A DNA stretch of 64,000 nucleotides. Source: an uncultured Alphaproteobacteria bacterium (lineage in GTDB: Bacteria > Pseudomonadota > Alphaproteobacteria > Rs-D84). Where the stretch lies: assembly GCA_944390125.1 (NCBI GenBank), contig CALXOX010000003.1, positions 21,280 to 85,279 on the forward strand, read 5' to 3'. Below are positions 8,589 to 50,681 of the stretch, piece after piece (within the stretch, counting starts at the first letter, position 1; every line of letters starts with the position of its first letter). The position numbers were made by a program, and so were the translations under genes. The notes beneath the pieces are model-generated. The model did not search any database. It was not told the DNA's origin and saw only the letters and a program-made list of their open reading frames with translations.

Positions 8589-10860
8589 AGAACTGTGTTT
8601 CAAAAGACAACAGGAATCTTTGTTCTCTGTCATACTTTGTCATCTTTAACGGCCAACCCCAGCTGAAGTTCATCGGCCCCATCGGTGTATTCCAGTAAAT
8701 ACCAACACCCAAAGATGTACGTAAATCGCTGTCGATATAGTTTGGATAGCCCATGTAAGTATATTCTTCTTTCGGAGGTTTACCCAAAATACCATAATCA
8801 AAGAACACAAAACCCTTTATTTGGTATTCATCCGGTATGAAAATAGGGAAGTTCAACTGTGTAGAACCATTGATTTTCCATAACCCACCAAGAGAATATG
8901 TTGTATATGCCCAGTTTCTTGAACCGACGCCTGCGATATCAAAACCACGTAAAGATTCACCGCCTAAGAAATAGCGATAAACACGTGAGATATAGTCGCC
9001 GCCAATTGATTGCAATAAGCCAAAGTCCAGCGATGAACGCAGTTGCCATCTATCGTCAAAGAATTTTACCATACCAGTAATATCGGCGCTATATCGCATA
9101 TATGTCTCAGAACCCCCGAAACCTGTATAAGCGATACCGATGTTGCTGACAATACCAGTATGGGTATTCTGTTCGAAATTTGTATCCAGATTGTAATAAC
9201 GGAAATATGTACCCAACGTGTACAAATCTGCATCGCGCCAACCTGTTGCAGATTGTATATCATAGTTCTGGTCAAAAGAGGCTGACAAGCGAACGTTTTG
9301 AGACCAGTGGTCTGTCAACTTCCAACCCATGCGGCCTGCAATTGTTAAAGAGTCGCGATCATAACCAAATCCGCCCAAAGACGAGTAATCGTACATAGTA
9401 TATGAAACGTCAAAGCCAGCGGATAATTGGCGCCCGAACAAGTAAGGTTCTGTGAAACTAAATAATGCTTGTTTTTGGTATTGTGCGATTGAACCACGTA
9501 ATTGAACAACCTGACCGCGCCCCATAAAATTGGTTTCGGTAATACCCGCATCAACCATAAAACCGTTTATGTTGGACCAACCAAAACCGCCAGATAACTC
9601 ACCTGTTGGTTGTTCTTCAACTTCTATATCCAGGTTTATCATATTGGCATCAGCGATACGATTTGGCACCATTTGAACATTTTTGAAGTATCTTGTACGC
9701 ATCAAATTTTGACGACCTTCTTCAATTGTTTGCAACGAGAACGGGTCACCAGAGCGCATAGGTATCAACTGTTCAATAACTGAATCAAACGTACGAACAT
9801 TACCCAAGATATTTATGTTATTCAGATAAATACGATTGGTCTTTTCAATCTGAAATTCCATATCAATTGTCTGATTGTCGTCATTTTTCTTAGGAATTGG
9901 ATTTACGTTGATAAATGCATATCCATAATCAGCGACAGCACCACGCAGGGCAGATATAGTTTCATCAACTAAGTCAATATTATATACGTCGCCAGAATCC
10001 ATTTTCAGAACTTCATACAACTCTTCAGTTGATACGTCAGAAAACGGATTGTTTATTGTCAGTTTGCCGAATTTATATTTTTTGCCCTCATCGACAGTAA
10101 ACGTTACAGAATAATATTGACGGTCTGGTGTAAATACTCCATTTACGTCAGTTACTTGAATGTCAACGTAACCATTGCGCATATAAAATTGTTTCAGCAT
10201 CTGCTGGTCATATAAAATTCTGTCTTCATCAAACACATCAAACTGTGTCATAAAGCGCCACCAAGCATGTTCGCGGGATAGAATTTGATCGCGCAAATCA
10301 GAATCACGGAAGACTTTATTACCTTCAAAATCAATTCTTGTGATATATGTTGGATGTCCTTCATCAATTTCGTAAACAACATTCACTCGATTGTCATCTA
10401 ATTCAATTTTTTGTGGCTCGATTTTTGTTCCAAAGAAACCTTTGCGCTGGTATACAGTCAACATGCGTTGAACATCTGCACCAATTACAGACTCATCATA
10501 TGAATCACGGGCTTTCAGGCGAAGTTCCTTTTTCAAATCATCCGTTGATATTTCATCGTTGCCTTCTATTGTAACCATATTTACAGTAGGCGCTTCTGCA
10601 ATGTCTATCTTCAACGTATTACCAGACATGCTCACGCTAACACGTGAAAAATAACCACTTTCTTGCAGACGCTTTGCAATTCTATTTGTATCATCAGAAT
10701 TTATGTTGTCACCCACCTTTACTTCAGACAGAATTCGAATAGATTCTGCATCCATACGTTGATTGCCTTTCACATCAATTCTAGACACAGTTGCTGCATT
10801 TGCAATCGGTGCTATCAGCATAGAGACTGCTGTGGTAAATAGTACAGTTTTTTTATTCAT
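8587..10860 (-). CDS. bamA: Outer membrane protein assembly factor BamA
   Basis: 757 aa with signal peptide, POTRA-like N-terminal repeats and a C-terminal beta-barrel ending ...LSFETQF. Sits in the canonical position after rseP. Confidence 0.9.
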   Translation of the reverse strand: MNKKTVLFTTAVSMLIAPIANAATVSRIDVKGNQRMDAESIRILSEVKVGDNINSDDTNRIAKRLQESGYFSRVSVSMSGNTLKIDIAEAPTVNMVTIEGNDEISTDDLKKELRLKARDSYDESVIGADVQRMLTVYQRKGFFGTKIEPQKIELDDNRVNVVYEIDEGHPTYITRIDFEGNKVFRDSDLRDQILSREHAWWRFMTQFDVFDEDRILYDQQMLKQFYMRNGYVDIQVTDVNGVFTPDRQYYSVTFTVDEGKKYKFGKLTINNPFSDVSTEELYEVLKMDSGDVYNIDLVDETISALRGAVADYGYAFINVNPIPKKNDDNQTIDMEFQIEKTNRIYLNNINILGNVRTFDSVIEQLIPMRSGDPFSLQTIEEGRQNLMRTRYFKNVQMVPNRIADANMINLDIEVEEQPTGELSGGFGWSNINGFMVDAGITETNFMGRGQVVQLRGSIAQYQKQALFSFTEPYLFGRQLSAGFDVSYTMYDYSSLGGFGYDRDSLTIAGRMGWKLTDHWSQNVRLSASFDQNYDIQSATGWRDADLYTLGTYFRYYNLDTNFEQNTHTGIVSNIGIAYTGFGGSETYMRYSADITGMVKFFDDRWQLRSSLDFGLLQSIGGDYISRVYRYFLGGESLRGFDIAGVGSRNWAYTTYSLGGLWKINGSTQLNFPIFIPDEYQIKGFVFFDYGILGKPPKEEYTYMGYPNYIDSDLRTSLGVGIYWNTPMGPMNFSWGWPLKMTKYDREQRFLLSFETQF

Positions 10861-14057: not shown

Positions 14058-14133
14058 GGGGTTGTAGCTCAGTTGGTAGAGCACTTGCATGGCATGCAAG
14101 GGGTCGTCGGTTCGAGTCCGATCAGCTCCACCA
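14058..14133 (+). tRNA. tRNA-Ala (anticodon GGC)
   Basis: Manual cloverleaf: acceptor GGGGTTG/CAGCTCC with G3:U70 Ala identity pair, D arm GCTC-AGTTGGTA-GAGC, anticodon stem CTTGC/GCAAG with loop ATGGCAT, T arm GTCGG-TTCGAGT-CCGAT, encoded CCA. Confidence 0.8.
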
Positions 14134-14769: not shown

Positions 14770-14847
14770 GGCGGATGTAGCTCAGTTGGTTAGAGCACTG
14801 GTTTGTGGTACCAGGTGTCGCCGGTTCGAATCCGGTTATCCGCCCCA
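14770..14847 (+). tRNA. tRNA-His (anticodon GTG) with G-1
   Basis: Manual fold: extra 5' G-1 opposite discriminator C73, anticodon stem CTGGT/ACCAG with loop TTGTGGT, T arm GCCGG-TTCGAAT-CCGGT, encoded CCA. Confidence 0.8.
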
Positions 14848-28551: not shown

Positions 28552-28627
28552 TGGTGGGGACACAGGGACTCGAACCCTGGACCCAATGATTAAAAGTCAT
28601 TTGCTCTACCAACTGAGCTATGTCCCC
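28552..28627 (-). tRNA. tRNA-Lys (anticodon TTT)
   Basis: Reverse complement folds as GGGGACA-TA-GCTC AGTTGGTA GAGC-A-AATGA CTTTTAA TCATT-GGGTC-CAGGG TTCGAGT CCCTG-TGTCCCC-A-CCA. Confidence 0.85.
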
Positions 28628-34112: not shown

Positions 34113-34184
34113 TGGTAAAAATAACTTGATTTTACGTGATTATTGCTACTATACTCCCCTCTACAGTTATTTATGGAGAAAGGT

Positions 34185-37100
34185 ATGTCTTTTTTAAAGC
34201 GTAGCACGGAATATAATCTAATAGCAAAATCAAAATATTTCAATAAAAGATGGTATTTAAGGAAGTACGCAGATGTTGCCAGCAAGAGGGTGGACCCTGT
34301 AACACATTATTTGGAACATGGCTGGAAAGAGGGCAGAAATCCTGGACCTAAGTTTAGTACAGAACTTTATCTGAAAAATAATCCTGATGTGGCGGCAGCA
34401 AGGATAAATCCTTTGTTGCATTACGAGAGAAACGGGAAGTATGAGGTTGGAAGAATAGCCGTAAGACACAAATGTAATCGTTTTTTATATAAGTACCTTT
34501 CTTTTGTTCACAAATGTTTTAAACGTGCAGATATAAAACGTATTTTATTGATTTCGCATGAGTTTACTTATACCGGTGCGCCTTTATCTCTGTTAAAGGC
34601 CGCACAATTGCTGAAAGAAAAGGGATATGAAATAATAACTGTTTCTTTAAAGGCTGGAGGATTAGAAACAGAATTTAAGAAACTTGGCAAAGTAATTATA
34701 ACGAGTAATCTTAACAAAATACTACGTTGTGCCACTTTTGCGGATTTTGCCGTTGTGAATACAATCATTCCATATGAAGCGTACGACATGTTAAAGAATT
34801 TTATGCCTACTGCTTGGTGGATTAGGGAACCCGTTGGTGTTCTTAAAGGAAATTGCTTTATGCGGCAGATTTTTATGAATGCAGATAACGTATATACTAT
34901 GTCGCCGTGGTCCAGAGATGAGTTTTTGCCATATAACAGAAATATCGAAGTGATGCCGCATGGCTTAGACGACATGTTTGCTGGTAGTAAAGCTTTCCCT
35001 AAAAAGCCTACTTTTGCTGTGATTGGTAGTATTCATCCAAGAAAAGGACAGGATGTTTTTATAGATGCTGTAAAGAAATTACCGGCAGAGATTAGGAAAA
35101 AAGCTGCTTTTTTAATTGTTGGTAAATTAAATGTGTCAGATAGTGATTGGGAGAGCCTTGGGGCGCCAAAATGTATACAAGTAAAGCCAGAAATATCTAA
35201 TTTTGAGGATATGATAAAGTTTTATGGTGACATATCTTGTACAGTTGTTCCGTCTAGGGAAGAGCCTACATCCAGGGTCGCAATAGAATCCATGATGATG
35301 GGGCGCCCAGTTGTGATGTCAGATCAGGTCGGCGCACAATACTTGGTCAATAGCCGCAATGGTTATGTGTTCAAAAATGAAGATGCTAAACAATTGTCTG
35401 GTATATTAGCTAAACTTATAAAGTCTCCTGAAAAATTAAAAACGATGGGTAAGTATGCCAGAGAAGCTTATTTGAAGAACAATTCTATTCCTGTTTATAC
35501 GAAAAATTTACTTAATATGCTGTCAGATTGTAAAAATTCTTTTGATAATAAACCGACTAAAATACTGGTACATATTCATTTATTTTACCACGAGCAGTTA
35601 GATTGGTTTATATCTAGATTGAAAAATATAACCTGTGATTATGATTTGTGGATTACGGTTACAGAAAAAAATAAAGAAACTGAGGATAAAATAAAGAATT
35701 TTAAACCAGATACACATATTTTAAAAGTGCCCAATCGTGGTTATGATCTTTATCCATTTTGGTTGGTTTTACAAAATGTTTCATTGTTTGATTATGACGC
35801 GGTATTGAAGTTGCACACCAAGAATAAAAGAACTAAAAAATGGTGCAAGAACGGTATTTGCTATAATGGTTTTGAATGGCGTAACGATTTGATAAATCCT
35901 TTGTTGGGCAGTAAGAAATTGTTTCAGAAAGCAGTGGATTTTGTGAAATGCGATAATATTGGCATGGTTGGGTCCGCCAATTTGATTGGTAATAAAGAAA
36001 ATCCAGAGCAGGCCAAAAATACAAAAAAATTGTGTGAATTGATGGGAATAAAATATTCTCATGATGGCAAGTTTGTATGTGGCACGATGTTTTTGATAAA
36101 GGCAAATTTATTGCTGGTTTTTCAGCAGTATCCATTCAAAAAATCTGATTTCAGCTCGGAGTCAAAGACTGGAAGTACTGGTACTGTTGCGCATAGCTTA
36201 GAAACAGTTATGGGTTTGATTGTCGCAGACAGAAAATTAAAATTGGTTGGTGTTGATACGCTTGGAACATCGTTTAAGCATTTTTGCGCAAGGTACAAAC
36301 AAAAATATATAAATTTATTAAAAACAATAAGAAAACGTAAAAAAGAAGTTGATTATATAAAACATTCTAAGTATTTCAGTAAAAGGTGGTACTTGCGTAC
36401 ATATCCAGATGTTGCAAAGGCAAAGGTGAACCCAGCACATCATTATTTGCTGCATGGTTGGAAAGAAGGTCGTAAACCAGGACCTAAATTTGATCCTAAA
36501 TTTTATTTAGAAAATAATCTTGATGTGAAAAGAGCTGGGGTAAATCCATTGCTGCATTATGAGAAACATGGGAAATACGAAGGCAGAATTGTTTGCCTTA
36601 AAAGAAGTTTAAAGCCAGCTGGACTTAAAGAGTTTCATGATGTTTACGTTGACGCCTTTAAATGGCGTGGCAAGATTGCCAAACGGGTTGTTGTATCATT
36701 GACAACATATCCTGGACGAATCAAGTCAGTTTATGAAACTATAAACACGTTAAAAAATCAGTCTGTTAAACCAGATAAGGTCGTACTGTACTTATCTGAG
36801 CAAGAGTTTCCTAAAAAGGATAAGGGACTGCCAAGAAATTTAACAAAGTTATGTGACGATTGCTTTGAAATACATTGGATTAAGAAAACTCTGTATAGTT
36901 TTCAAAAACTTATACCGGCAATAAAAGAATATCCAAATGCTGTAATTGTTACTGCCGATGACGACATTTTGTATAAAAGCAATTGGCTGGAATTATTGGT
37001 GAAGGCATATTTAGAAAATCCTAATATAATTCATTGTCATCGTGCGCATAGAATAAAATTCCGTGGTGGCCATGTTATATCCTATAACTTATGGAAAATG

Positions 37101-37517
37101 GCGATACGTAATGAGTCTGCTCTATATAACAACTTTTTAACTGGGGTTGGCGGAGTGTTGTATCCACCACATTGTTTGGATAAAAATATTACTAATTCAA
37201 AGGAATTTTTGAAGTTATGCCCGAAAGCTGACGATATATGGATTTGGGCAATGGCGGTAAAAAATCATACAAAAATTCATGTCATAAAAGACAATATAAC
37301 TGCATTAGAATTGGTGCCTGGCAGTCAAGATGGTGATTGCTTATGCAAAATCAATACCGGTGCTGAATGTTATAATGATGTGCAATTAAAAAATGTTTTT
37401 GCAAAATATCCAGAAATTTTAGAAATGCTAAAGGACGAAAGAAGGAAAAACGCCATATTATCTTATTTGCTATACCCGTATTATTTACTATACTTTCTTA
37501 GAAAGGGTAAGAGATAG
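34185..37517 (+). CDS. Three-module polysaccharide glycosyltransferase (GT4, RgpF-like and GT-A-like modules) with duplicated ~75-aa module
   Basis: Start set to the ATG at 34185 with a GGAGAAAGG SD. GT4 E-x7-E motif (SREEPTSRVAIESMMMG). RgpF-like motifs (ILVHIHLFYHEQL, PNRGYDLYPF, KLHTKNKRT). C-terminal module VVVSLTTYPGRI...VTADDDILY. The block YF(N/S)KRWYLR.Y.DVA...V.P..HYL.HGWKEGR.PGPKF...YL.NN.DV..A..NPLLHYE..GKYE occurs twice. Confidence 0.7.
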   Translation: MSFLKRSTEYNLIAKSKYFNKRWYLRKYADVASKRVDPVTHYLEHGWKEGRNPGPKFSTELYLKNNPDVAAARINPLLHYERNGKYEVGRIAVRHKCNRFLYKYLSFVHKCFKRADIKRILLISHEFTYTGAPLSLLKAAQLLKEKGYEIITVSLKAGGLETEFKKLGKVIITSNLNKILRCATFADFAVVNTIIPYEAYDMLKNFMPTAWWIREPVGVLKGNCFMRQIFMNADNVYTMSPWSRDEFLPYNRNIEVMPHGLDDMFAGSKAFPKKPTFAVIGSIHPRKGQDVFIDAVKKLPAEIRKKAAFLIVGKLNVSDSDWESLGAPKCIQVKPEISNFEDMIKFYGDISCTVVPSREEPTSRVAIESMMMGRPVVMSDQVGAQYLVNSRNGYVFKNEDAKQLSGILAKLIKSPEKLKTMGKYAREAYLKNNSIPVYTKNLLNMLSDCKNSFDNKPTKILVHIHLFYHEQLDWFISRLKNITCDYDLWITVTEKNKETEDKIKNFKPDTHILKVPNRGYDLYPFWLVLQNVSLFDYDAVLKLHTKNKRTKKWCKNGICYNGFEWRNDLINPLLGSKKLFQKAVDFVKCDNIGMVGSANLIGNKENPEQAKNTKKLCELMGIKYSHDGKFVCGTMFLIKANLLLVFQQYPFKKSDFSSESKTGSTGTVAHSLETVMGLIVADRKLKLVGVDTLGTSFKHFCARYKQKYINLLKTIRKRKKEVDYIKHSKYFSKRWYLRTYPDVAKAKVNPAHHYLLHGWKEGRKPGPKFDPKFYLENNLDVKRAGVNPLLHYEKHGKYEGRIVCLKRSLKPAGLKEFHDVYVDAFKWRGKIAKRVVVSLTTYPGRIKSVYETINTLKNQSVKPDKVVLYLSEQEFPKKDKGLPRNLTKLCDDCFEIHWIKKTLYSFQKLIPAIKEYPNAVIVTADDDILYKSNWLELLVKAYLENPNIIHCHRAHRIKFRGGHVISYNLWKMAIRNESALYNNFLTGVGGVLYPPHCLDKNITNSKEFLKLCPKADDIWIWAMAVKNHTKIHVIKDNITALELVPGSQDGDCLCKINTGAECYNDVQLKNVFAKYPEILEMLKDERRKNAILSYLLYPYYLLYFLRKGKR

Positions 37518-38213: not shown

Positions 38214-40007
38214 ATGTCTAACGATAAACAGCAAAATAGTATAAATAAGTTGGCTAAAAATGCGATAATAAAAAATTACAAGCGCATGTGGCCGTATGTG
38301 AAGCCTTATTGGAAGCAGGGGCTGCTTTCCATATTGTTGGCTATGCCTATTGGTGCCTTAGAGGGCGTTATAGCGATGTCTTTGCGCCCATATATGGATT
38401 TGGTTATGGTGGATAAATCCATTGAGGCGGCTTGGTATATTCCATTGGTTATAGTGTTGTTTACTTCTGTACAGGGTGGTTTGACATATGCAGCAAATTA
38501 TTTGAATACATGGGTTGGTGCAAAAATTACGAATTTGCTGAAGTTGGATTTGTACAAGAAGATGTTGATGTTTGATACTAATTTCTTCAACCGTCGCAAT
38601 TCTGGTGATATTTTGCAAATGTTTAACAGAAATGCGGATGCAGCGTGTTCAGGTTTGCTTACGAACTTAAAGAATTTTGTGCAGAAACTGTTTACGGCTT
38701 TGTCTTTAATATTTGTTTTGTTTTATAATTCATGGCAACTAGCGTTGGTATGCGTAACAATTTTGGTTGTTGCTTTTTTGCCCATGACTACATTAAAGAA
38801 AAAAATTCAGTCTGTTTTTGATAGTTCTTTGGTGGCAGAATCTTCTTTAATGACTGCCTATAATGAAACGTATTCTGGTAATAAAACGATTATCTCGTAT
38901 AATTTATCTGATTATCAAAAGAATAAATTCAAAAGCATTTTGGATGGCGTTTTTAAATTGCAGATGAAGATGGTTCAACGAACCAGATGGTTGACGCCTG
39001 TAATGCACATAATTTTATCAATTGGTATTGGTGCGGCAATATGGTTTGGTTCATTTTTGGTGTTGAATGGGTTTATAACTAGTGGCGCATTTGTATCATT
39101 TTTAACGGCTCTTATAATGTTGTATAACCCTATGAAAAGCATTGGCTCTAATTATAATTCTGTATTGATGTCTTTTATGGCCATAGAACGGGTTTTTGAG
39201 ATTATGGATTCAAAACCAGCTATTGTCGATAAGCCAGAATCTAAAGAAATGCCGGCTTTACATCATACAATAGAGTTTAAGAATTTAAATTTTGAATATA
39301 ATCGTGGCGTTCCTATCTTAAAGAACATAAACCTGACGGTACAGCAAGGACAAATTATCGCTTTGGTTGGGAATTCTGGTGGTGGTAAGACAACTTTGGT
39401 AAGTTTGTTGCCGCGTTTTTATGACCCTACAAGTGGTGCAATTTTAATTGATGGGACAGATATTCGCGATTTTACATTGAAATCATTGCGTCAAAACATA
39501 GGTGTGGTTTTCCAGGATAATTTCTTATTTGCAGGCACAATTCGTGAAAACATTATGTTGGGTAACGAGAACGCTACTCAAGAACAGTTAGACACAGCGA
39601 TAAAAATGGCGTGTTTGGACGATTTTGTGCACAGTTTGAAAAATGGCTTAGACACTCAAATTGGCGAGCGTGGTATATTGTTATCAGGTGGTCAGAAACA
39701 GCGTGTTGCCATTGCGCGGGCATTTTTGAAGAATGCGCCTATATTGATATTGGATGAAGCGACATCTGCGCTTGATAATAAATCCGAAGCAGTCGTTCAG
39801 CAGGCAATAGAAAACTTGATGAAGGACAAAACAGTATTCGTTATAGCGCACAGATTATCCACAATAAGAAATGCTTCTAAGATAGTTGTGGTAAATCAGG
39901 GTGAAATTGTTGAAGCTGGTACCCACGAAGAATTACTGCAACATGAATGTGGGGCATATAAGACTTTGTATGATATGCAGTTTAAGTGTAATGCTCCATC
40001 GGAATAG
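38214..40007 (+). CDS. ABC exporter, fused permease/ATPase (MsbA/NdvA-like type I exporter)
   Basis: Six-TM N-terminal domain. NBD with Walker A GNSGGGKTT, signature LSGGQKQRVAIARA and Walker B ILILDEATSALD. Confidence 0.8.
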   Translation: MSNDKQQNSINKLAKNAIIKNYKRMWPYVKPYWKQGLLSILLAMPIGALEGVIAMSLRPYMDLVMVDKSIEAAWYIPLVIVLFTSVQGGLTYAANYLNTWVGAKITNLLKLDLYKKMLMFDTNFFNRRNSGDILQMFNRNADAACSGLLTNLKNFVQKLFTALSLIFVLFYNSWQLALVCVTILVVAFLPMTTLKKKIQSVFDSSLVAESSLMTAYNETYSGNKTIISYNLSDYQKNKFKSILDGVFKLQMKMVQRTRWLTPVMHIILSIGIGAAIWFGSFLVLNGFITSGAFVSFLTALIMLYNPMKSIGSNYNSVLMSFMAIERVFEIMDSKPAIVDKPESKEMPALHHTIEFKNLNFEYNRGVPILKNINLTVQQGQIIALVGNSGGGKTTLVSLLPRFYDPTSGAILIDGTDIRDFTLKSLRQNIGVVFQDNFLFAGTIRENIMLGNENATQEQLDTAIKMACLDDFVHSLKNGLDTQIGERGILLSGGQKQRVAIARAFLKNAPILILDEATSALDNKSEAVVQQAIENLMKDKTVFVIAHRLSTIRNASKIVVVNQGEIVEAGTHEELLQHECGAYKTLYDMQFKCNAPSE

Positions 40008-40036
40008 AGATTTTATAGGTTTGTTTGGTTTAATGT

Positions 40037-40067
40037 CAGCGGGTTATAACCGCTGGTATTTTTTTTA
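40037..40067 (+). terminator. Intrinsic terminator after ABC exporter
   Basis: CAGCGG-GTTATAA-CCGCTG hairpin followed by T9. Confidence 0.6.
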
Positions 40068-40101
40068 ATTTCTTGAAAATCTGCTAATTTATGCTAGTTA
40101 T

Positions 40102-40653
40102 GTGTGCATAATGGACAGCATAAAAGAATCTTTAACACAAATTAAAATGCGCGAATTATTTGGCGCAAACCATCAATTCATAGAATGTTTTAACTATGAC
40201 ACCTGGAGCCGTGATGACGGAATCAAAGTTTTAAATCCAGAGATAGCAACTTATAAAAATTTCAGAAACATTTTAAAAAGCGATGCTCGTTTTAATAATA
40301 ATTATGATTTGGTTGCAGTCGTTTCTTTAAGTATATGTCCATATCCATATTCAAATAGTCCATTTTGGGGACAGATTGTAAGAAACCCGAAATATGTCCA
40401 ACCGAATATAAAATTTTTGGGAGAAACTGGTTTCGCAGGTACAATAGTATGTCGTGATAAGAAGACGGGGCAGATATTACCTGTACCAAATAAGTGGCTT
40501 TACACGTCTACCAGTCATTGTATAATTCCCGAACGGACGAAGACGAATGGCTTACCTGGTTTAGCGAATTTGATAGAAAGTGACGTATTTTGCCAAGATT
40601 ATGAAACGTACGAAAAACTGATACGGATACATGTATCAGAGCGATATAGATAA
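40102..40653 (+). CDS. Hypothetical protein (183 aa)
   Basis: ORF with no recognisable motifs, followed by a hairpin (ACCGC...GCGGT at 40663-40679). Confidence 0.35.
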   Translation: MCIMDSIKESLTQIKMRELFGANHQFIECFNYDTWSRDDGIKVLNPEIATYKNFRNILKSDARFNNNYDLVAVVSLSICPYPYSNSPFWGQIVRNPKYVQPNIKFLGETGFAGTIVCRDKKTGQILPVPNKWLYTSTSHCIIPERTKTNGLPGLANLIESDVFCQDYETYEKLIRIHVSERYR

Positions 40654-41179: not shown

Positions 41180-41424
41180 TTCGTTTCGTCTTTGTTTAGC
41201 GATTATAAGTATTTTTATTCAAGATAATCTTAAAATTGTTTTTATAGATTTTCAAGTATGCTCAATTCTGATTTCAAGTATGAAATCTATGTGATTTCAG
41301 AGGTGATTTCAGCAGTAATGGTATATATTACTGTGTGTCAAATATGTGTTTTTGTTCTACAACTAGAGCAATTTAGAGCCATTTTCATCCAATTTTGCAT
41401 AAAAACGGGGTAGAAGACAGACAA

Positions 41425-41503
41425 TAAAAAATCCGCAGAAATCTGCGGAAATCTGTGGCTCGGGCAACTGGACTCGAACCAGGACATACGGATTAACAGT
41501 CCG
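41425..41503 (-). repeat. Direct repeat A: degenerate partial copy of the tRNA-Asn 3' half plus downstream terminator (att-like)
   Basis: 41426-41503 matches 44831-44909 (AAAAAATCCGCAGAAATCTGCGGAAATCTGTGGCTCGGGCAACTGGACTCGAACCAG[T]GACATACGGATTAACAGTCCGTT) with a 1-nt deletion; it diverges after CCGTT. Confidence 0.7.
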
Positions 41504-41686
41504 TTTTTATTAAGATTGATAGAAATTGATAAAGTTTAATTTTTATTGATTTTCTGCGGGTTATAGGCTATGTTGCACTTGATGACGATTAATGAAAAGA
41601 AGCAATATCTGATGGAACTGATGATTAGTGTTGATGCTTTGCTTTCTATATTTTTTATAATAAAAGGTGCCAAGTGGCACCTTTTT

Positions 41687-42697
41687 TTAATTCTGTAAAC
41701 CAGATATACTTTTGTCGCATAATTTTGCATAGATCGGTTTATCTAAACCGTATGCTTTTATCAAGTTACTTGGTTTTTGATTGCACCACAGATCACGATA
41801 GGAAACAATGCTGTTTTTAACCGTTTTTATCAGGCCGCTTGGCAGTTCGGCACGCCCAATGCACGAAGACAGGTAAACAAAACATTCGTCGTTGTCGGCC
41901 AGATTTTCGCACGCCAGGATACGAGCATACACATTAAGGGTCAAATCTGCCTTGCTAGCATCCTTTGTCCATGGGCTGCCACCACCAATCGGACATGCGG
42001 TTGAATAAAAGTCACATGCCAATTTTCGTCCTGTAATGCCACAGTCTGCTATGGAACCATGATATGTATAACGTCCAGTACCATTTATGATAATGTGCGC
42101 TGGCTTTTCGCCCAATGTTTCAATGATAAAGTCGGTCAGGTCTTCGTCCTTTAACATCGGGATTGCCACAATAGTGGTTTCAATCTTGTCGTCGTTCAAT
42201 GTGATTTGTGTCTTGATATCTATGCCGAGATTATCAGATTGACGGGCTTTATCGTACAGGGCTTTGTTCAGCTTTCGGGCCAAATATAATTCCCGATTTA
42301 TCTTACCTTCGCCTTGGCAGGCATAGCCAACAAACACACCTTGATCGCCCCAGCCATCGGCAACAACACCACGATTGATATCTGCGGATTGTACGCCAAT
42401 TAAATTGGTAACCTTTATTTGCGCTGGGTTAATGGCCAAATCGCCCCATATTGATGCGTATCGGTCATTGTACCCGATTTCGGCAATGGCGGCCTTAACA
42501 TAGTCGGTCAAATTACCAAGTGGGGCAGAGGTGGTAACTTCGCCACCAAGGACGACATTGTTGTCTTTTATTAAGACTTCAACGGCATATTTGACCTGTG
42601 GATCTTGCTCAATTAACCGATCCAAAATGTAACTGGAAATGTAATCGGCAACTTTATCTGGGTGTCCCAATGACACCGCTTCTGCTGTTCTTTGCAT
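41687..42697 (-). CDS. S-adenosylmethionine synthetase-like protein (divergent MetK family)
   Basis: GHPDKVADYIS, DGWGDQGVFVGYA and GGGSPWTKDASKAD correspond to the MetK motifs GHPDK, GAGDQG and GGGAFSGKDPSKVD. 336 aa versus about 384 for canonical MetK. Good SD AAGGAGTG. Confidence 0.65.
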   Translation of the reverse strand: MQRTAEAVSLGHPDKVADYISSYILDRLIEQDPQVKYAVEVLIKDNNVVLGGEVTTSAPLGNLTDYVKAAIAEIGYNDRYASIWGDLAINPAQIKVTNLIGVQSADINRGVVADGWGDQGVFVGYACQGEGKINRELYLARKLNKALYDKARQSDNLGIDIKTQITLNDDKIETTIVAIPMLKDEDLTDFIIETLGEKPAHIIINGTGRYTYHGSIADCGITGRKLACDFYSTACPIGGGSPWTKDASKADLTLNVYARILACENLADNDECFVYLSSCIGRAELPSGLIKTVKNSIVSYRDLWCNQKPSNLIKAYGLDKPIYAKLCDKSISGLQN

Positions 42698-42970
42698 AAT
42701 TCACTCCTTTGGTTTTTGCAGTAAGAACCAAAGGTGGATTCATGTAGCTACCAACACAGGTGCAAAAGCACTGTGCAAAATGCGGCATAAAGTATAGGAA
42801 AATTTGCATATAACAACTCCTTGTTTAGTCCATTTAGAGGTAGGACAAGTCAGGTTAAATCCACCTTTACTGATCCATATTGTAAATCATTTGAAAAAAA
42901 ATGCAAGCCAGATCACTACAACAAGATAAGCCACCCAAAAGAGTGGCTTATTCATAATAGATCAAACCGT

Positions 42971-44644
42971 TTATTTTGCACCGTACGAGATCAATAATTT
43001 AGCAATATCTTTATCAGAGTTTTTCTTGGCATGTTTGAGGGGTGTATAGCCAGACGTGTCGGCCATATTGACATCTGCACCAGCATCCAATAGAACAGTT
43101 ATCAATTCAAGTTTAGCCTTCTTATCAAACTTTGAATTAGGATAAAGCTTACGATTTATAGCGTAAATGAGAGCTGTAGACGTGTATGTGTCGGCATTAA
43201 CATCCGCACCAAGTTCTATAAGTTTCTCTATTACTTTAGGATTTGAATTGTTTGCAACAGCATTCATTAAAACTGTGCGTCCTGTTTTTGTCGCATAATT
43301 AGGATCGGCACCGTATTTAACTAATACAGCAAAAATTTCTGGGTTTGTGTTGTACGTCGAAGCTTCCATCAGAGGAATAATTTTTTCTGTTTTTTCCAAT
43401 TTAATTGGTCTTATTGCATGCTTTAATACTTCTTTAGGCAATTTGTGTACTACTTCAACAGAATTAGGATCTATTCCTTTTTTTAGCAATTCTTCAACTT
43501 GTTTAGCGTTACCAGAATTTTGTATTAAATGTACAAATGCTTTTACCTTGTCATCGCTAGCTGGTGTTAATACTTCTTCTAAACCTTTTTCCCAGGAAAT
43601 CATCCGAGAAGAAATAACTGCCCCTTTATCAACAAAAAGGCGAAGAATTTCTAAATCTTGTTCTCGTTCTTCTTTGCGTGCGCTTGTGTTTCTAACAATA
43701 CATTCTATAATTGGTTCTCCGTCTATTTTGGCATTCACATCGGCACCTAGGTCGACAAGTTTTTTTACTGAATTTGCAGTATATTCAAAGCTATCGATCA
43801 AATCGCACAAAACTAGAGTGATGTCTTGTTTGTCCACCAATCCCTTTTTGTTGAGCAGTTTATAAATCTTTTCAATCATGTCCGGGTTAGGATTGTGTGT
43901 AGCGGCATTCAGCAAGGTTTGATTTTCGGGACCAGCAAAAATCCCACCATCTTCGTTGATAGAAACCCCTAAATTAGCACCGGCTGAGATCAGATAATCA
44001 ACAACCTCTAATGATGGGTTGTCTCTACATGCTACATATAAAGCTACGTCTAGCTCGTCTTTGGGCATCCCATTATCAAACAATGATTTTATAATCAACG
44101 GATTAGGGTTGCATTGTGCGGCGATAATCAATGCACTACGGTCTTCTTCATCGCAGGCGGACATATCAGCACCGTTATGTAAGAGATAATCAATAATTTC
44201 AACATTTTGGTTAAATTTTGCTGCGTAAAGCAAGGCACTGCCTGCAACAATGCTATCTTCGCCATAATCATCACGTTCATCAGATAAGAACAACTTCTGT
44301 GCCTCGTTTACTATCGAATTTAGTACGGATTTCGGTATGTTGTCAGGGTCCTTTATTTTTGCAGCATAATTCTTTTTTTTCATGACACATCTTACTAAGA
44401 AACCAAAGTAGTCTTTTGTTTCGGCATTTATGTCGGCCCCAGCCTCTACTAAAGTCTTAATAACATCTAGGCATGCTCCGGATTTAACAGCTATAATAAG
44501 GGGTGTGGAACCATTTTTTGTTTCGCAATTTACATCTGCACCTAGCGATATGAATTTTTGTATTTCTTTACTAGATACTTTGCTGTTTGAACAGGCAGTA
44601 AGCAATTCTATATCTACATCAATAATATCTTCAGAATGTGACAT
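42971..44644 (-). CDS. Ankyrin-repeat protein (557 aa)
   Basis: At least 10 ankyrin-like repeats with GADVNA, GADINAE, GANLGV, GADPNY and LL.AGADVN loops. Confidence 0.85.
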   Translation of the reverse strand: MSHSEDIIDVDIELLTACSNSKVSSKEIQKFISLGADVNCETKNGSTPLIIAVKSGACLDVIKTLVEAGADINAETKDYFGFLVRCVMKKKNYAAKIKDPDNIPKSVLNSIVNEAQKLFLSDERDDYGEDSIVAGSALLYAAKFNQNVEIIDYLLHNGADMSACDEEDRSALIIAAQCNPNPLIIKSLFDNGMPKDELDVALYVACRDNPSLEVVDYLISAGANLGVSINEDGGIFAGPENQTLLNAATHNPNPDMIEKIYKLLNKKGLVDKQDITLVLCDLIDSFEYTANSVKKLVDLGADVNAKIDGEPIIECIVRNTSARKEEREQDLEILRLFVDKGAVISSRMISWEKGLEEVLTPASDDKVKAFVHLIQNSGNAKQVEELLKKGIDPNSVEVVHKLPKEVLKHAIRPIKLEKTEKIIPLMEASTYNTNPEIFAVLVKYGADPNYATKTGRTVLMNAVANNSNPKVIEKLIELGADVNADTYTSTALIYAINRKLYPNSKFDKKAKLELITVLLDAGADVNMADTSGYTPLKHAKKNSDKDIAKLLISYGAK

Positions 44645-44829
44645 GAAATATTCTTTTTGTTATATTACTGATATTAGCACACGACGAGTACGGTTAACAA
44701 GATAAAACTATTAAATTAGAAAAACATACGTATATCCCGTATGTAAATATATGTTTTTATAACGCATCTAGGGGCAGTTTTAGGAACTTTAAAGCACTTT
44801 TGTTAAAAAACATGATTTTTAATAAACGT

Positions 44830-44909
44830 AAAAAAATCCGCAGAAATCTGCGGAAATCTGTGGCTCGGGCAACTGGACTCGAACCAGTGACATACGGATT
44901 AACAGTCCG
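44830..44909 (-). repeat. Direct repeat B (intact copy, spanning tRNA-Asn 3' half and its terminator)
   Basis: See repeat A. Includes the terminator hairpin TCCGCAGA-AA-TCTGCGGA (44838-44856) downstream of the tRNA 3' end. Confidence 0.7.
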
Positions 44910-44936
44910 TTGTTCTACCGACTGAACTATGCCCGA
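44861..44936 (-). tRNA. tRNA-Asn (anticodon GTT)
   Basis: Reverse complement TCGGGCA-TA-GTTC AGTCGGTA GAAC-A-ACGGA CTGTTAA TCCGT-ATGTC-ACTGG TTCGAGT CCAGT-TGCCCGA-G-CCA. Closely resembles E. coli tRNA-Asn (U1, discriminator G). Confidence 0.85.
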
Positions 44937-45061: not shown

Positions 45062-45877
45062 ATGTTATTAAAAGGAAAAAAGATTCTTATTACAGGCGTT
45101 GCTAACGACTGGTCTATGGCTTGGGCTATCGCTAAGCGCGCACATGAAGAAGGCGCAGAAATTGCTATGCCTTATGCAATGCCTAATCTGGAAAAACGTG
45201 TTCGCCCATTGGCAGAGTCTATCGATGCCAAATTTGTGCAGAAATGCAATGTTCAAAATGATGAACAAATGGATGCTTTGTTCGGCGCAATCGAAAAAGA
45301 ATGGGGGCATCTAGACGGTATGTTGCATGCTATCGCTTTTTCAGATAAAAATGAACTGACAGGGCGTTATGCAGATACTACACGTGCTAATTTCAAGAAT
45401 ACTATGGATATTTCTGTATATTCTTTGGTTGATTTAACACGTCGCGCGTCTAAATTGATGACAGACGGCGGCAGCATCGTTGCATTGACTTATTATGGTG
45501 GTGAAAAGTCTGTTCCAAACTATAACGTCATGGGCGTTGCAAAATCCGCTTTGGATAGCAGTGTTCGTTACTTGGCTTCAGATTTGGGTAAAGATAAGAT
45601 CCGTGTAAATGCTATCAGTGCAGGTCCTATTATGACATTGGCTTCTTCTGGTGTCGGAGGCTTTAAAGCAATGTTGCGCTTGAACGCAGAAACAACACCT
45701 TTGCGCCGCAATATGACATTAGAGGACGTTTCTGGCGCTGCTTTGTATCTGTTTAGTGATTTGTCTAGTGCTGTAACTGGTGAAGTTCATCACGTTGATT
45801 GTGGCTATTCTACAACAGGTATGATGCCGAACGAAATGAAGGATATTTTGTTGAAGGGTTTGGACGAACAAAACTAA
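45062..45877 (+). CDS. fabI: Enoyl-[acyl-carrier-protein] reductase (NADH)
   Basis: Start at internal ATG 45062 with SD AGAGGAAG. ILITGVANDWSMAWAIAKRAHEEGAEIA N-terminus and Y-x6-K (YNVMGVAKSAL) as in FabI. Confidence 0.85.
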   Translation: MLLKGKKILITGVANDWSMAWAIAKRAHEEGAEIAMPYAMPNLEKRVRPLAESIDAKFVQKCNVQNDEQMDALFGAIEKEWGHLDGMLHAIAFSDKNELTGRYADTTRANFKNTMDISVYSLVDLTRRASKLMTDGGSIVALTYYGGEKSVPNYNVMGVAKSALDSSVRYLASDLGKDKIRVNAISAGPIMTLASSGVGGFKAMLRLNAETTPLRRNMTLEDVSGAALYLFSDLSSAVTGEVHHVDCGYSTTGMMPNEMKDILLKGLDEQN

Positions 45878-48590: not shown

Positions 48591-49235
48591 ATGAAGAATG
48601 TTTTATTTTTTTCTTTATTATTCTTAGTGTTGTGGACTTGCGATGCTTTTGCTGTTCTAACCAATTGTATAGGAACTACCACGTGTCCTGACCAAAATGG
48701 TTGTCAGTATTTGAATGTGGTAGGATGTGCAACTGGAAAAGATATGTTTTATGGTAGTTATGCTGTTAGAAGTTGTTTGACTTGCGGCAATGGTTACGAA
48801 TTGGTTTCTAAAAGTGTGTTTGTGCCGGGGTGCACCAGAGCCGTCTTTTATAATGATTGCCAAGCAACATGTGTAAAATGCCCAGATTGCGAAAGTGAAG
48901 ATTGGACAAGTGTTAGTTTGCTTAGTTTTTATGAGAAAAAAGTCAATGCAGTATGTAATAAGACTACGTGTACGTGTAGTAAAACAACATCGTACAGATG
49001 TAAAAAAGGATATTATGGTACGGCCAATGCAACAGGAACTTCTGGTTGTTCTAGATGTCCTTCGCTTGGAGCAGGGCGCCCAATAGGTAGTGAAACTTGG
49101 CTTTCTTTGTATGCCTCTACACCAGGTGCTGGTAATGGTTACGATATAACAGACTGTTATGCTCCCTCTACAAACGAGTATAAAGACACGTATGGAATCT
49201 ATAATTATACGTCGGACTGTTATTATACAGAATAA
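48591..49235 (+). CDS. Cys-rich secreted protein, family-1 copy A (214 aa)
   Basis: Signal peptide, about 20 Cys. Shares the core NVVGC...SC.TC..G...V.KS..VPGC..A..Y.DC...C..CPDCESEDW and ...DCY with copies B and C. Confidence 0.6.
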   Translation: MKNVLFFSLLFLVLWTCDAFAVLTNCIGTTTCPDQNGCQYLNVVGCATGKDMFYGSYAVRSCLTCGNGYELVSKSVFVPGCTRAVFYNDCQATCVKCPDCESEDWTSVSLLSFYEKKVNAVCNKTTCTCSKTTSYRCKKGYYGTANATGTSGCSRCPSLGAGRPIGSETWLSLYASTPGAGNGYDITDCYAPSTNEYKDTYGIYNYTSDCYYTE

Positions 49236-49307
49236 ATTTGATAATAAATTTATTCTTGATTTTGTTACACATTGATATGTAATATGCAAATATAGAAAGG
49301 CATTATC

Positions 49308-49937
49308 TTGAAAAAAATATTGTTTAGTTTTTTTCTGGTTTGGGCATGTTTAAATACACATAGTGGTTTTGCTGCAGAGTTTGTTAGATGTATAGGCACA
49401 GCAGATTGTGCTGTTGGTATACAATGCCCAATTATAAATTTAGTTGGATGCGGATCTTTTACGACCCAATACTATAATAATATGGGGGTTTCAAGTTGTA
49501 CTACATGTCCAAGTGGTTTTAATAGAGTTTCTAAATCTATAACTGTTCCAGGGTGTTCAAACGCAATAACTTATTATGATTGTGAGCAGCCATGTATAGA
49601 ATGCCCAGACTGTGAAAGTGAAGATTGGAAGACGTATGTAACACCAAGTGGTGTAATTAGAATCGCGTATCAGAGAAAAGTTACTGCTACTTGTAATTAT
49701 GCTACGTGTGTTTGTTCTAAAAAATACCAATATCGTTGCAATGATGGGTATTATGGTAGGTCGATAAACGGTTTGACAGGATGTTCTCGTTGCCCAGCAA
49801 ATGGAAGTAATGGGTTGCTTACGTGGGGAAGTAGTGTCGCAGGAAATAACTTGTCTATAGCTGGTTGCTTTGTTGCAAGTGGCGGCGATGAGTCTGGAGA
49901 TTATATGTATTCACAGGATTGCTATTATAAAAGATAA
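49308..49937 (+). CDS. Cys-rich secreted protein, family-1 copy B (209 aa), TTG start
   Basis: TTG start at 49308 after a GAAAGG SD. About 75% identical to copy C across the core. Upstream motif ATATAGAAAGG is shared with copy C. Confidence 0.6.
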   Translation: MKKILFSFFLVWACLNTHSGFAAEFVRCIGTADCAVGIQCPIINLVGCGSFTTQYYNNMGVSSCTTCPSGFNRVSKSITVPGCSNAITYYDCEQPCIECPDCESEDWKTYVTPSGVIRIAYQRKVTATCNYATCVCSKKYQYRCNDGYYGRSINGLTGCSRCPANGSNGLLTWGSSVAGNNLSIAGCFVASGGDESGDYMYSQDCYYKR

Positions 49938-50039
49938 TCAGGCGTCTATTCTAGTTTGTTTTAATACTAACAATTTTTAACTTGACTTAATAATAGTGTA
50001 CTGTTTAACATATATAGAAAGGGACAAGAGGTTATTGCT

Positions 50040-50681
50040 GTGAAGAGAATATTTTTTTGTTTTTTGGTAATTTGTGTTTGTTATAATCCATGTAAATCCT
50101 TTGCGTCTTTTCAGGCTTGTGCGGGGGTGGCTTTCTGCTCTGCTGGTGTAAGGTGTCCAAATTTAAACGTTGTTGGATGCGCGAATTTTACAACTACGTA
50201 TTACAATGACATGGGCGTGTCCAGTTGTACTACATGTCCAAGTGGTTTTAATAAAGTTGCTAAATCTATAACAGTTCCTGGGTGTTCAAACGCAATACTT
50301 TATTATGATTGTGAGGCACCGTGCCTAGAGTGCCCAGATTGTGAAAGCACTGATTGGACTTCTACGGAGGCTCGTGGTGGTTATGAGAAGAAAGTTACAG
50401 CGATTTGTAATACGGCTTTGTGTGTATGTAGAAAAACAACTTCCTATAGATGTAAGCAAGGATTTTATGGCACGTCTAATTCATTGGGAACGTCTGGATG
50501 CACACAATGCCCACAGGTCGGGGTTGCAGATAACGGAAACTATTTGATATATGTAACTGGTGAAACTCCTGCTGCCGGGAATGGGTATTCTATAACAGAT
50601 TGTTATGCACCAAATACTTACGAATATATAGGAACCGGCGGAAACTGGGTCTTTACAGAAAATTGTTATTATACAGAATAA
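50040..50681 (+). CDS. Cys-rich secreted protein, family-1 copy C (213 aa), GTG start
   Basis: GTG start at 50040 after an AGAAAGGGA SD. Conserved Cys scaffold. C-terminal DCYAPNTYEY...NCYYTE matches copy A. Confidence 0.6.
   Translation: MKRIFFCFLVICVCYNPCKSFASFQACAGVAFCSAGVRCPNLNVVGCANFTTTYYNDMGVSSCTTCPSGFNKVAKSITVPGCSNAILYYDCEAPCLECPDCESTDWTSTEARGGYEKKVTAICNTALCVCRKTTSYRCKQGFYGTSNSLGTSGCTQCPQVGVADNGNYLIYVTGETPAAGNGYSITDCYAPNTYEYIGTGGNWVFTENCYYTE

Follow-up and report, generated by a model that had tools for sequence, protein, structure and literature searches.

The DNA considered here is a 64-kb stretch (hereafter the window, numbered 1-64,000) of contig CALXOX010000003.1, from an uncultured alphaproteobacterium assigned to Candidatus Enterousia in the order Rs-D84, a group with genomes smaller than about 1 Mb that lack the tricarboxylic acid cycle and respiration (PMC12306168). 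Our subject is a locus in this window at which an intact tRNA-Asn(GTT) gene and a partial copy of that gene bracket a gene for an ankyrin-repeat protein, a gene for a divergent MetK-like S-adenosylmethionine (SAM) synthetase and, besides these, only small open reading frames (ORFs; Table 1). Genes for tRNAs were called with ARAGORN and Rfam (release 15), and domains were assigned with Pfam, NCBIfam and PADLOC. For comparison, 79 related loci (identified below by L numbers) were oriented on the MetK gene, and tRNA-Asn genes, tRNA-Asn fragments and marker genes were mapped on each.

Repeat searching and pairwise alignment revealed an exact 57-nt direct repeat (41426-41482 and 44831-44887), a match that cannot be due to chance given its occurrence inside 6.5 kb. 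The tRNA copy then has an additional base (44888), beyond which 41483-41505 and 44889-44911 are again identical. The duplicated part of the tRNA thereby extends from the 5′ side of the anticodon stem through the 3′ end (the CCA-end; positions 26-76) and is followed by the terminator hairpin; past the terminator, the copies remain weakly similar (~79% for ~85 nt). The start of the repeat at the 5′ anticodon stem corresponds to a known crossover sublocation for tRNA-integrating elements. Both attachment-site (att)-type copies preserve the whole stretch between the anticodon stem and the 3′ end, and in most strains the two are identical. The pair was found again in more than 10 independent metagenome assemblies, in which the partial copy matches the tRNA copy at 81/81 positions; the 1-nt deletion in the window is thus a strain variant. 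A tblastn search of the window with two integrase types and one serine recombinase (resolvase) from relatives gave no match anywhere in the 64 kb, and no Pfam recombinase domain occurs in the ORFs inside the bracket. With respect to the duplicated tRNA-Asn and terminator, the one-base deletion in the 3′ copy and the lack of a recognizable integrase, these analyses bear out the original prediction made for this locus.

Table 1. Features of the tRNA-Asn locus, in window coordinates
Feature	Position	Strand	Basis and remarks
Conserved right flank	38214-40653	+	ABC transporter 38214-40007, 183-aa ORF 40102-40653; Pfam; synteny
Two small ORFs, 55 and 58 aa	40795-41179	-	Signal-peptide-like; between F1 and conserved flank
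Flank F1, ~155 nt	41267-41425	-	Recurs after partial tRNA-Asn in relatives
Repeat copy 2, 80 nt, attR-like	41426-41505	-	tRNA 3′ 51 nt with 1-nt deletion (41456-41505) and terminator copy (41426-41455)
Arm (P-arm-like), ~90 nt	41506-41598	-	Directly 5′ of partial tRNA; TATCAAT twice at 41502-41532
Bidirectional terminator hairpin after MetK	41662-41685		Right end of conserved MetK module 41657-42884
MetK-like SAM synthetase, 336 aa, divergent	41687-42697	-	Pfam; PDB alignment; TIGR01034
Upstream ORF, 51 codons	42654-42809	-	Begins after Shine-Dalgarno sequence of leader motif; overlaps MetK start
Hairpin CCACCUUUGG/CCAAAGG	42702-42740	-	Predicted by folding to hide MetK Shine-Dalgarno sequence
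SAM-V-like leader motif	42817-42865	-	P1 at 42825-42848; 3′ end is Shine-Dalgarno sequence
Strain-variable segment with ankyrin gene	42868-44830		Unrelated 173-nt spacer in its place in L001 and L008
Terminator-like hairpin 3′ of ankyrin gene	42926-42951	-	
Ankyrin-repeat protein, 557 aa	42971-44644	-	Pfam; ankyrin repeats alone, no further domain detected
Spacer F2	44714-44830	-	Downstream of tRNA terminator; ~70-80% similar to F1
Repeat copy 1, 81 nt	44831-44911	-	tRNA positions 26-76 and 30-nt terminator hairpin (44831-44860)
Intact tRNA-Asn(GTT)	44861-44936	-	ARAGORN; Rfam tRNA 74.1 bits; attL side of bracket, integration target
FabI, conserved left flank	45062-45877	+	Pfam; synteny

In related genomes, the same tRNA gene is associated with integrases and with islands of accessory DNA. 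Arrays in which a tRNA-Asn gene, an island, a tRNA-Asn fragment and MetK follow one another were observed in L033, L040, L042, L132 and L021. The island comprises a type II restriction endonuclease, two methyltransferases and a DUF4238 protein in L033, an Eco57I-like enzyme in L040 and two ORFs between tRNA and fragment in L132. On the closed 958-kb chromosome that contains L021 (OZ007020.1), the order is an integrase (Pfam Phage_integrase, 1.3e-20), a fragment, GmrSD/NsnA with two methyltransferases, a second fragment and MetK. In L021, L030, L032, L036, L037, L039, L053, L057 and L022, a tyrosine integrase gene is located 0.4-2 kb left of a fragment; the L022 enzyme has Arm-DNA-bind_3 and Phage_integrase domains. 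The fragments fall into three boundary classes, extending from the anticodon stem/loop to the 3′ end, comprising an 18-nt anticodon-loop core, or extending from the T-loop to the 3′ end; 5′-half fragments that break in the anticodon loop (L027, L041, L049 and L052) suggest inversions at that loop. The boundary classes, the 5′-half fragments and the integrases together indicate that tRNA-Asn is a hotspot for several integrase lineages, and the geometry of the repeat, along with integrase islands in relatives that are bounded by the same tRNA-Asn fragments, upholds the proposal of site-specific integration at the 3′ part of the tRNA. Hotspot cargo in the relatives is mostly anti-phage defence: type II, type IIG and type I-like restriction-modification (R-M) systems, GmrSD/NsnA, PDC-S01 and a Dcm-AIPR-Z1 cluster. 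None of the related islands showed conjugation genes.

The sequences adjoining the partial copy point in the same direction. The sequence in which arm and partial tRNA meet (41426-41598) matches, with 95% identity, a junction in L022 that follows integrase and HNH genes and joins the integrase island to the partial tRNA, such that a cognate-looking arm stands beside an integrase in that locus. On the other side of the partial copy, the F1 flank recurs after a tRNA-Asn fragment with 91-92% identity in L021 and L061 and ~99.7% in L020, and in all three R-M or defence cargo comes next. The partial tRNA with its 155-nt flank is thus a recurrent unit, present in other species and in other contexts. 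Spacer F2 is 79-83% identical to the L021 spacer that separates a tRNA fragment from MetK. The 55-aa and 58-aa ORFs beyond F1 may be a remnant of an older unit. In L020, where MetK is followed by a fragment, F1 and R-M cargo, a decayed third fragment lies 27 nt from the conserved 183-aa ORF. In the window, the interval from F1 to this ORF contains no such decayed third fragment.

Small serine recombinases also occur beside MetK or in islands (L061, 11257-11856; L126, 660-1277 and 3675-4235; L022, 151-768; L051, 134-562), and that of L061 passes the NCBIfam cut-off for the Mpi master invertase (316.5 versus 272). The tRNA-Asn gene is inverted relative to MetK in L025, L049, L051, L052, L056, L059, L060 and L065.

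The MetK-like protein matches the N-terminal and C-terminal Pfam domains of SAM synthetase above their cut-offs (80 and 51 bits) and the M domain at 28.0 bits versus a cut-off of 29, and its GHPDK, GDQG, DxKTQ, GRK and GGG..KD catalytic motifs align with those of MetK proteins in the PDB. It falls below the NCBIfam equivalog cut-off (TIGR01034, 169.8 bits versus 309.4), and the family to which it belongs is ~50 aa shorter than canonical MetK. Relatives were found in at least 273 species genomes, all of them metagenome-assembled genomes (MAGs) from gut or rumen labelled Candidatus Enterousia or uncultured Alphaproteobacteria, and across this Rs-D84-type clade the family is conserved at 70-100% identity. 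Among loci whose MetK is at least 77% identical, at least 25 have a full tRNA-Asn or a fragment 350-550 nt upstream of the gene. Members of the family are nearly always neighbours of tRNA-Asn. The bracket excludes MetK in most species, the gene being placed immediately beyond the att fragment, and a position between tRNA and fragment was seen in three species only (that of the window, L020 and L061). A native flank accounts better than cargo for this near-universal occurrence and for the usual position beyond the fragment.

The G+C content at third codon positions (GC3) of MetK is 43%, among the highest in the window (ORFs, 34 ± 4%), and remains ~43-46% even in a genome of 35% GC. No evidence for a phage-borne MetK was obtained: a scan of viral contigs yielded 22 loci at 64-76% identity, none of which lies near tRNA-Asn or a homologous integrase. 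Some MAGs have two MetK-like copies (L041, at 447-1448 and 8977-9978; L023/L048, on one contig, CACZUL010000005.1; L025/L071), of which one adjoins a housekeeping gene (that of leucyl-tRNA synthetase in L041) and the other adjoins tRNA-Asn fragments and defence genes. In L071, the second copy is preceded by a leader motif with an internal deletion. A resolvase lies at the start of the L022 contig, as one does after MetK in L061, and a tandem second MetK copy might therefore be located just past that contig start.

Upstream of the MetK-like gene is a motif of ~50 nt (GGAUUUAACCUGACUUGUCC-loop-GGACUAAACAAGGAG), which was present in 88 of 100 sources searched (the window and 99 loci; 1.67 Mb of sequence), all 88 matches being just upstream of MetK. 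It occupies the same position in L021-L098, L100-L107, L116 and L132. Its 6-bp P1 stem is invariant, and covariation was observed at one outer pair, which closes onto the Shine-Dalgarno sequence (UA in 26, AU in 8, CG in 3, unpaired in 0; none of 500 shuffles reached the observed score). The best Rfam match of a short form of the leader (L088) is the SAM-V riboswitch (RF01826), at 19.7 bits (E = 0.37), which does not reach the gathering score of 41; the leader of the window, a long form, matched no Rfam riboswitch. The motif shares with SAM-V riboswitches the same P1 (UUGUSC/GSAC-U-AA), conserved single-stranded blocks and a 3′ AAGGAG Shine-Dalgarno sequence. It differs in its lower score, in a shorter loop, in its location ahead of a SAM synthetase gene in gut Rs-D84 bacteria and, among close relatives, in being followed by an upstream ORF and a predicted long-range anti-sequestor/sequestor platform. 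Modeling of the long form suggests a sequestor hairpin on the MetK Shine-Dalgarno sequence, the 5′ arm of which may alternatively pair with the 5′ end of the motif. We consider the leader to be a candidate SAM riboswitch variant missed by Rfam 15. Given this leader and the conservation of the gene in at least 273 species, MetK is probably a long-established, SAM-regulated housekeeping SAM synthetase of the lineage, and as such it is presumably essential.

The ankyrin gene has a different history. It is missing from the same-species strains L001 and L008, in which the repeat brackets MetK alone. Because these strains keep the repeat, the gene constitutes an indel inside the bracket that is not delimited by the repeat; it is a separate, strain-variable accessory insertion or deletion. 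Homologues of its product form three close clusters only (81-99% identity), with a few more at 43-53%. NCBIfam models of Legionella Dot/Icm Ank effectors scored at most 75 bits against cut-offs of 500-1400 and covered the repeats only, and inspection of the N-terminus revealed no obvious signal peptide, so that neither a secretion signal nor membership in a known effector family was recognized. The C-terminal repeats match the PADLOC candidate-defence model PDC-M72A (1.5e-33), a match that may reflect the repeats only. Given the defence cargo of the hotspot, a phage-defence role for this protein could be entertained as readily as the host-directed effector role of the original prediction. Foreign origin of the gene on compositional grounds was rejected, its GC and GC3 (30%) being ordinary or low.

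Comparison of strains and species revealed both further insertion at this site and exchange across it. Contigs encoding exactly the proteins of the window come from many samples, and most match the window. The same-species strains L126 and L128-L131 are 99.1% identical to the right flank of the window, with similarity starting only at 41462; upstream of this point they carry a different island with two resolvase genes (Mpi-type) and a PDC-S01 candidate defence ATPase, ending in a decayed T-loop-type tRNA fragment fused to the same terminator and F1. This is the structure that would be expected if a further element had integrated into the retained partial copy. Between species, the segment of L022 from the tRNA fragment to the MetK terminator, with both ankyrin and MetK genes (3253 nt), is 99.0% identical to the window, and the ABC transporter gene is 75.5% identical. 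The MetK module is 97.8% identical in L021, for which there is no shared housekeeping comparison, and 91-92% identical in L033 and L132, whose LigA-FabI region is 74-76% identical; in L061, MetK and LigA are at 73.8% and 73.1%, respectively. Likewise, the tRNA-to-MetK block of L001 matches that of L132 at 92.7% over 1431 nt, with housekeeping genes at 73-76%. A block that is 98-99% identical between species whose housekeeping genes are ~75% identical indicates horizontal exchange. The high-identity tracts begin inside the tRNA and stop at the MetK terminator (41657-41664), and, to judge from these alignments, exchange of the tRNA-proximal block most likely proceeds by homologous recombination, with the invariant tRNA and the conserved MetK module serving as its anchors.

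We favor, as the probable explanation of the locus, a reading in which the repeat is an attL/attR-type scar of integration in the anticodon-loop region at a tRNA-Asn hotspot, the bracketed DNA is a unit resembling a cis-mobilizable element (CIME), MetK is the clade's own gene, and the ankyrin gene is a separate accessory insertion. Recombination by a tyrosine integrase in the anticodon-loop region would leave attL-type and attR-type ends: the incoming element would bring a copy of the 3′ part of the tRNA, integration would restore a complete tRNA on one side, and the 3′ fragment that it displaced would remain, together with the terminator, on the other side. Repeated integrations would pile up tandem units with a tRNA fragment between each. 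The 90-nt arm beside the partial copy may be the remainder of an integrase island of the kind that is intact in L022. MetK could have come to lie inside the bracket in two ways, either because a MetK-carrying unit integrated, or because an island integrated downstream of native MetK and then decayed. After the presumed loss of its integrase, the unit in the window, which has no recombinase, would move only with an integrase supplied in trans, or may simply be fixed; and the block of tRNA, spacer, MetK and, in some cases, ankyrin gene is exchanged between species.

Several observations weigh against this reading. An empty site, in which the full tRNA is joined directly to F1, was not found in the species or in Joint Genome Institute (JGI) metagenomes. 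A metagenome scan for the junction of full tRNA, terminator and F1 gave 0 matches, and a looser scan gave one contig, L136. When the ABC transporter and the 58-aa ORF were used as queries, no empty site emerged, but strains with another island at the partial copy did, and an exact look-up of the window's FabI returned nothing on record. The species of the window, as represented by the 64 kb and short contigs, yielded no integrase of the matching type. L136, from another species, has tRNA, ankyrin gene and MetK in this order at 81.5% nucleotide identity, with no fragment in 11 kb downstream. MetK is nearly universal in the clade and mostly distal to the att fragment. Finally, L020 (identical with L009) switches from window-like sequence (99.7%) to foreign sequence at position 1484, exactly where the repeated F1 unit ends, and may therefore be a chimeric contig.

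The competing account that survives best is the one put forward originally, according to which a single island with both ankyrin and MetK genes integrated at tRNA-Asn and lost its integrase, both genes being retained cargo delimited by the repeat. It shares the integration step with the reading favored here, and as a whole we regard it as possible but unlikely. Both genes are indeed enclosed by the intact tRNA and the partial copy, and by the logic of sequential integration whatever lies between tRNA and fragment is inserted DNA; the order of tRNA, MetK, Mpi-type recombinase and fragment in L061, the second MetK genes beside tRNA fragments and defence genes in L041 and L023/L048, and the atypical composition of MetK would all suit cargo. 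The same repeat nevertheless surrounds MetK alone in strains that lack the ankyrin gene, which is hard to reconcile with cargo delimited by it, and the tRNA fragment precedes the block of ankyrin and MetK genes in L022 and L024 and does not follow it. The block also occurs without a downstream repeat in L136, and the partial tRNA with its flank recurs elsewhere, findings that count in part against the original prediction. As for the two genes themselves, the breadth of MetK across at least 273 species, its dedicated SAM-V-like leader (88 of 100 sources) and its usual place outside the bracket, together with the absence of the ankyrin gene from L001 and L008, count against the proposed two-gene cargo.

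We consider quite doubtful a more radical version, in which the locus would be an integron-like cassette array of integrase-less units, each headed by a tRNA-3′ fragment, terminator and arm, that would be excised, shuffled and carried between species by integrases acting in trans, and in which the lineage's only SAM synthetase and its riboswitch would form one such travelling unit. If it were true, MetK might be co-selected with the SAM-dependent R-M systems in the array.

Alternatively, the partial copy might owe nothing to integration and be a relic of a tandemly duplicated tRNA-Asn, with terminator and flank, that lost its 5′ half, or an island might have entered a second tRNA-Asn downstream of native MetK and later been deleted. 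The similarity of the copies through the terminator and ~85 nt of weakly similar flank, and the native appearance of MetK, would accord with such a duplication. We judge both versions improbable, however: none of the 79 related loci (0/79) has two full tRNA-Asn genes around MetK, and the copy starts at the anticodon stem like the integrase-made fragments and adjoins an arm 95% identical to that of the L022 integrase island.

It is highly improbable that the partial tRNA and terminator have been kept for a function of their own, for example to terminate or insulate transcription downstream of MetK or to give rise to a tRNA-derived small RNA. Perfect identity to the tRNA in most strains (81/81), an intact terminator hairpin and 91% conservation of the unit of fragment and F1 across species could reflect such a role, but MetK has its own terminator 150 nt upstream, the window strain tolerates the 1-nt deletion, other strains have had most of the fragment replaced by a different island end, and the unit is found at unrelated array positions. 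The chance that the arrangement is an assembly artefact or chimera is negligible, despite an L008 contig that begins with Illumina adapter fused to the repeat (positions 1-51, on which account a second partial copy in L008 was rejected as artefactual) and an L020 junction at the repeat end, since more than 10 independent assemblies, made with different assemblers from different samples, share this architecture.

The interpretation of the repeat as an integration scar places the locus alongside several known systems. Islands and prophages with tyrosine integrases, as Williams (2002, Nucleic Acids Res) reportedly described, occupy the 3′ part of tRNA genes with crossovers at anticodon-loop and T-loop sublocations, and the Yersinia high-pathogenicity island is an example of integration at asn tRNA genes. 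Like these islands, the unit in the window is bounded on one side by an intact tRNA and on the other by a direct repeat of the tRNA's 3′ part, and the fragment boundaries at the anticodon stem/loop or T-loop and the integrases beside fragments in relatives complete the resemblance. In contrast to them, the unit in the window has no integrase, its identity block reaches 30 nt past the tRNA end, and it encloses a clade-wide SAM synthetase under predicted riboswitch control. CIMEs and their accretion are known from the ICESt1/ICESt3 family of Streptococcus thermophilus (Pavlovic 2004 and Bellanger 2011, reviewed in PMC5704250). The unit in the window has attL and attR without recombination genes, as CIMEs do, and arrays that grow by integration into a retained att site are paralleled by the stacking in L126-type strains and L021; it differs in that mobilization in trans is putative, in the lack of conjugation genes in related islands, and in a host genome of ~0.9 Mb.

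In Dehalococcoides, several islands integrate at a single small-RNA gene, the tmRNA gene ssrA (PMC3146451). Several islands at one small-RNA gene are common to that case and the present one, in which the target is instead tRNA-Asn and the cargo consists of defence systems, an ankyrin protein and MetK rather than reductive dehalogenases. The ssrA islands are said to leave short direct repeats, and to do so in a small genome. Defence islands, moreover, ride on chromosomally integrated mobile elements (PMC10201445). The R-M and other defence systems at the hotspot in relatives conform to this pattern; the unit in the window, by contrast, contains no recognized defence system, the PADLOC match of the ankyrin protein being to repeats only. 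PADLOC gave no recognition of MetK, the 183-aa ORF or a 225-aa ORF. Integration at tRNA sites, tandem accretion, integrase-less relics and defence-island hotspots are thus already well described. What is new is the host group, a core-like and predicted riboswitch-controlled SAM synthetase inside such an array, and a SAM-V-like leader below threshold.

Elsewhere in the window, tRNA genes for Ala, His and Lys occur at 14058-14133, 14771-14847 and 28552-28627, and in several more distant relatives a tRNA-Lys lies 2-7 kb from MetK. Three tandem paralogues of 214, 209 and 213 aa (48591-50681, + strand), 42-50% identical, are Cys-rich with signal-peptide-like N-termini; no Pfam match is recorded for them in related loci, and their copy number varies by strain (two in L002, three in L006 and L001). 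The gene for an RgpF/glycosyltransferase adjoining the ABC transporter (34143-37517, + strand) encodes 1110 aa in most strains; its position is taken by a 973-aa protein with other domains in L001 and L008 and by unrelated genes of 429 aa and 728 aa in L131. The surface-polysaccharide locus beside the hotspot is therefore also polymorphic.

For annotation pipelines, this locus is a good test case for integrase-less islets and for riboswitch variants that score below threshold, current Rfam thresholds having missed the leader. It also illustrates that a gene located between att repeats is not necessarily cargo: the gene so placed here most likely encodes the SAM synthetase native to the clade, with a SAM-V-like leader in front of it. 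In these little-studied, uncultivated gut bacteria with genomes smaller than 1 Mb, tRNA-Asn represents the main landing site for accessory DNA, most of it anti-phage defence, which implies that reduced genomes still keep a busy integration site across which DNA is exchanged between species.

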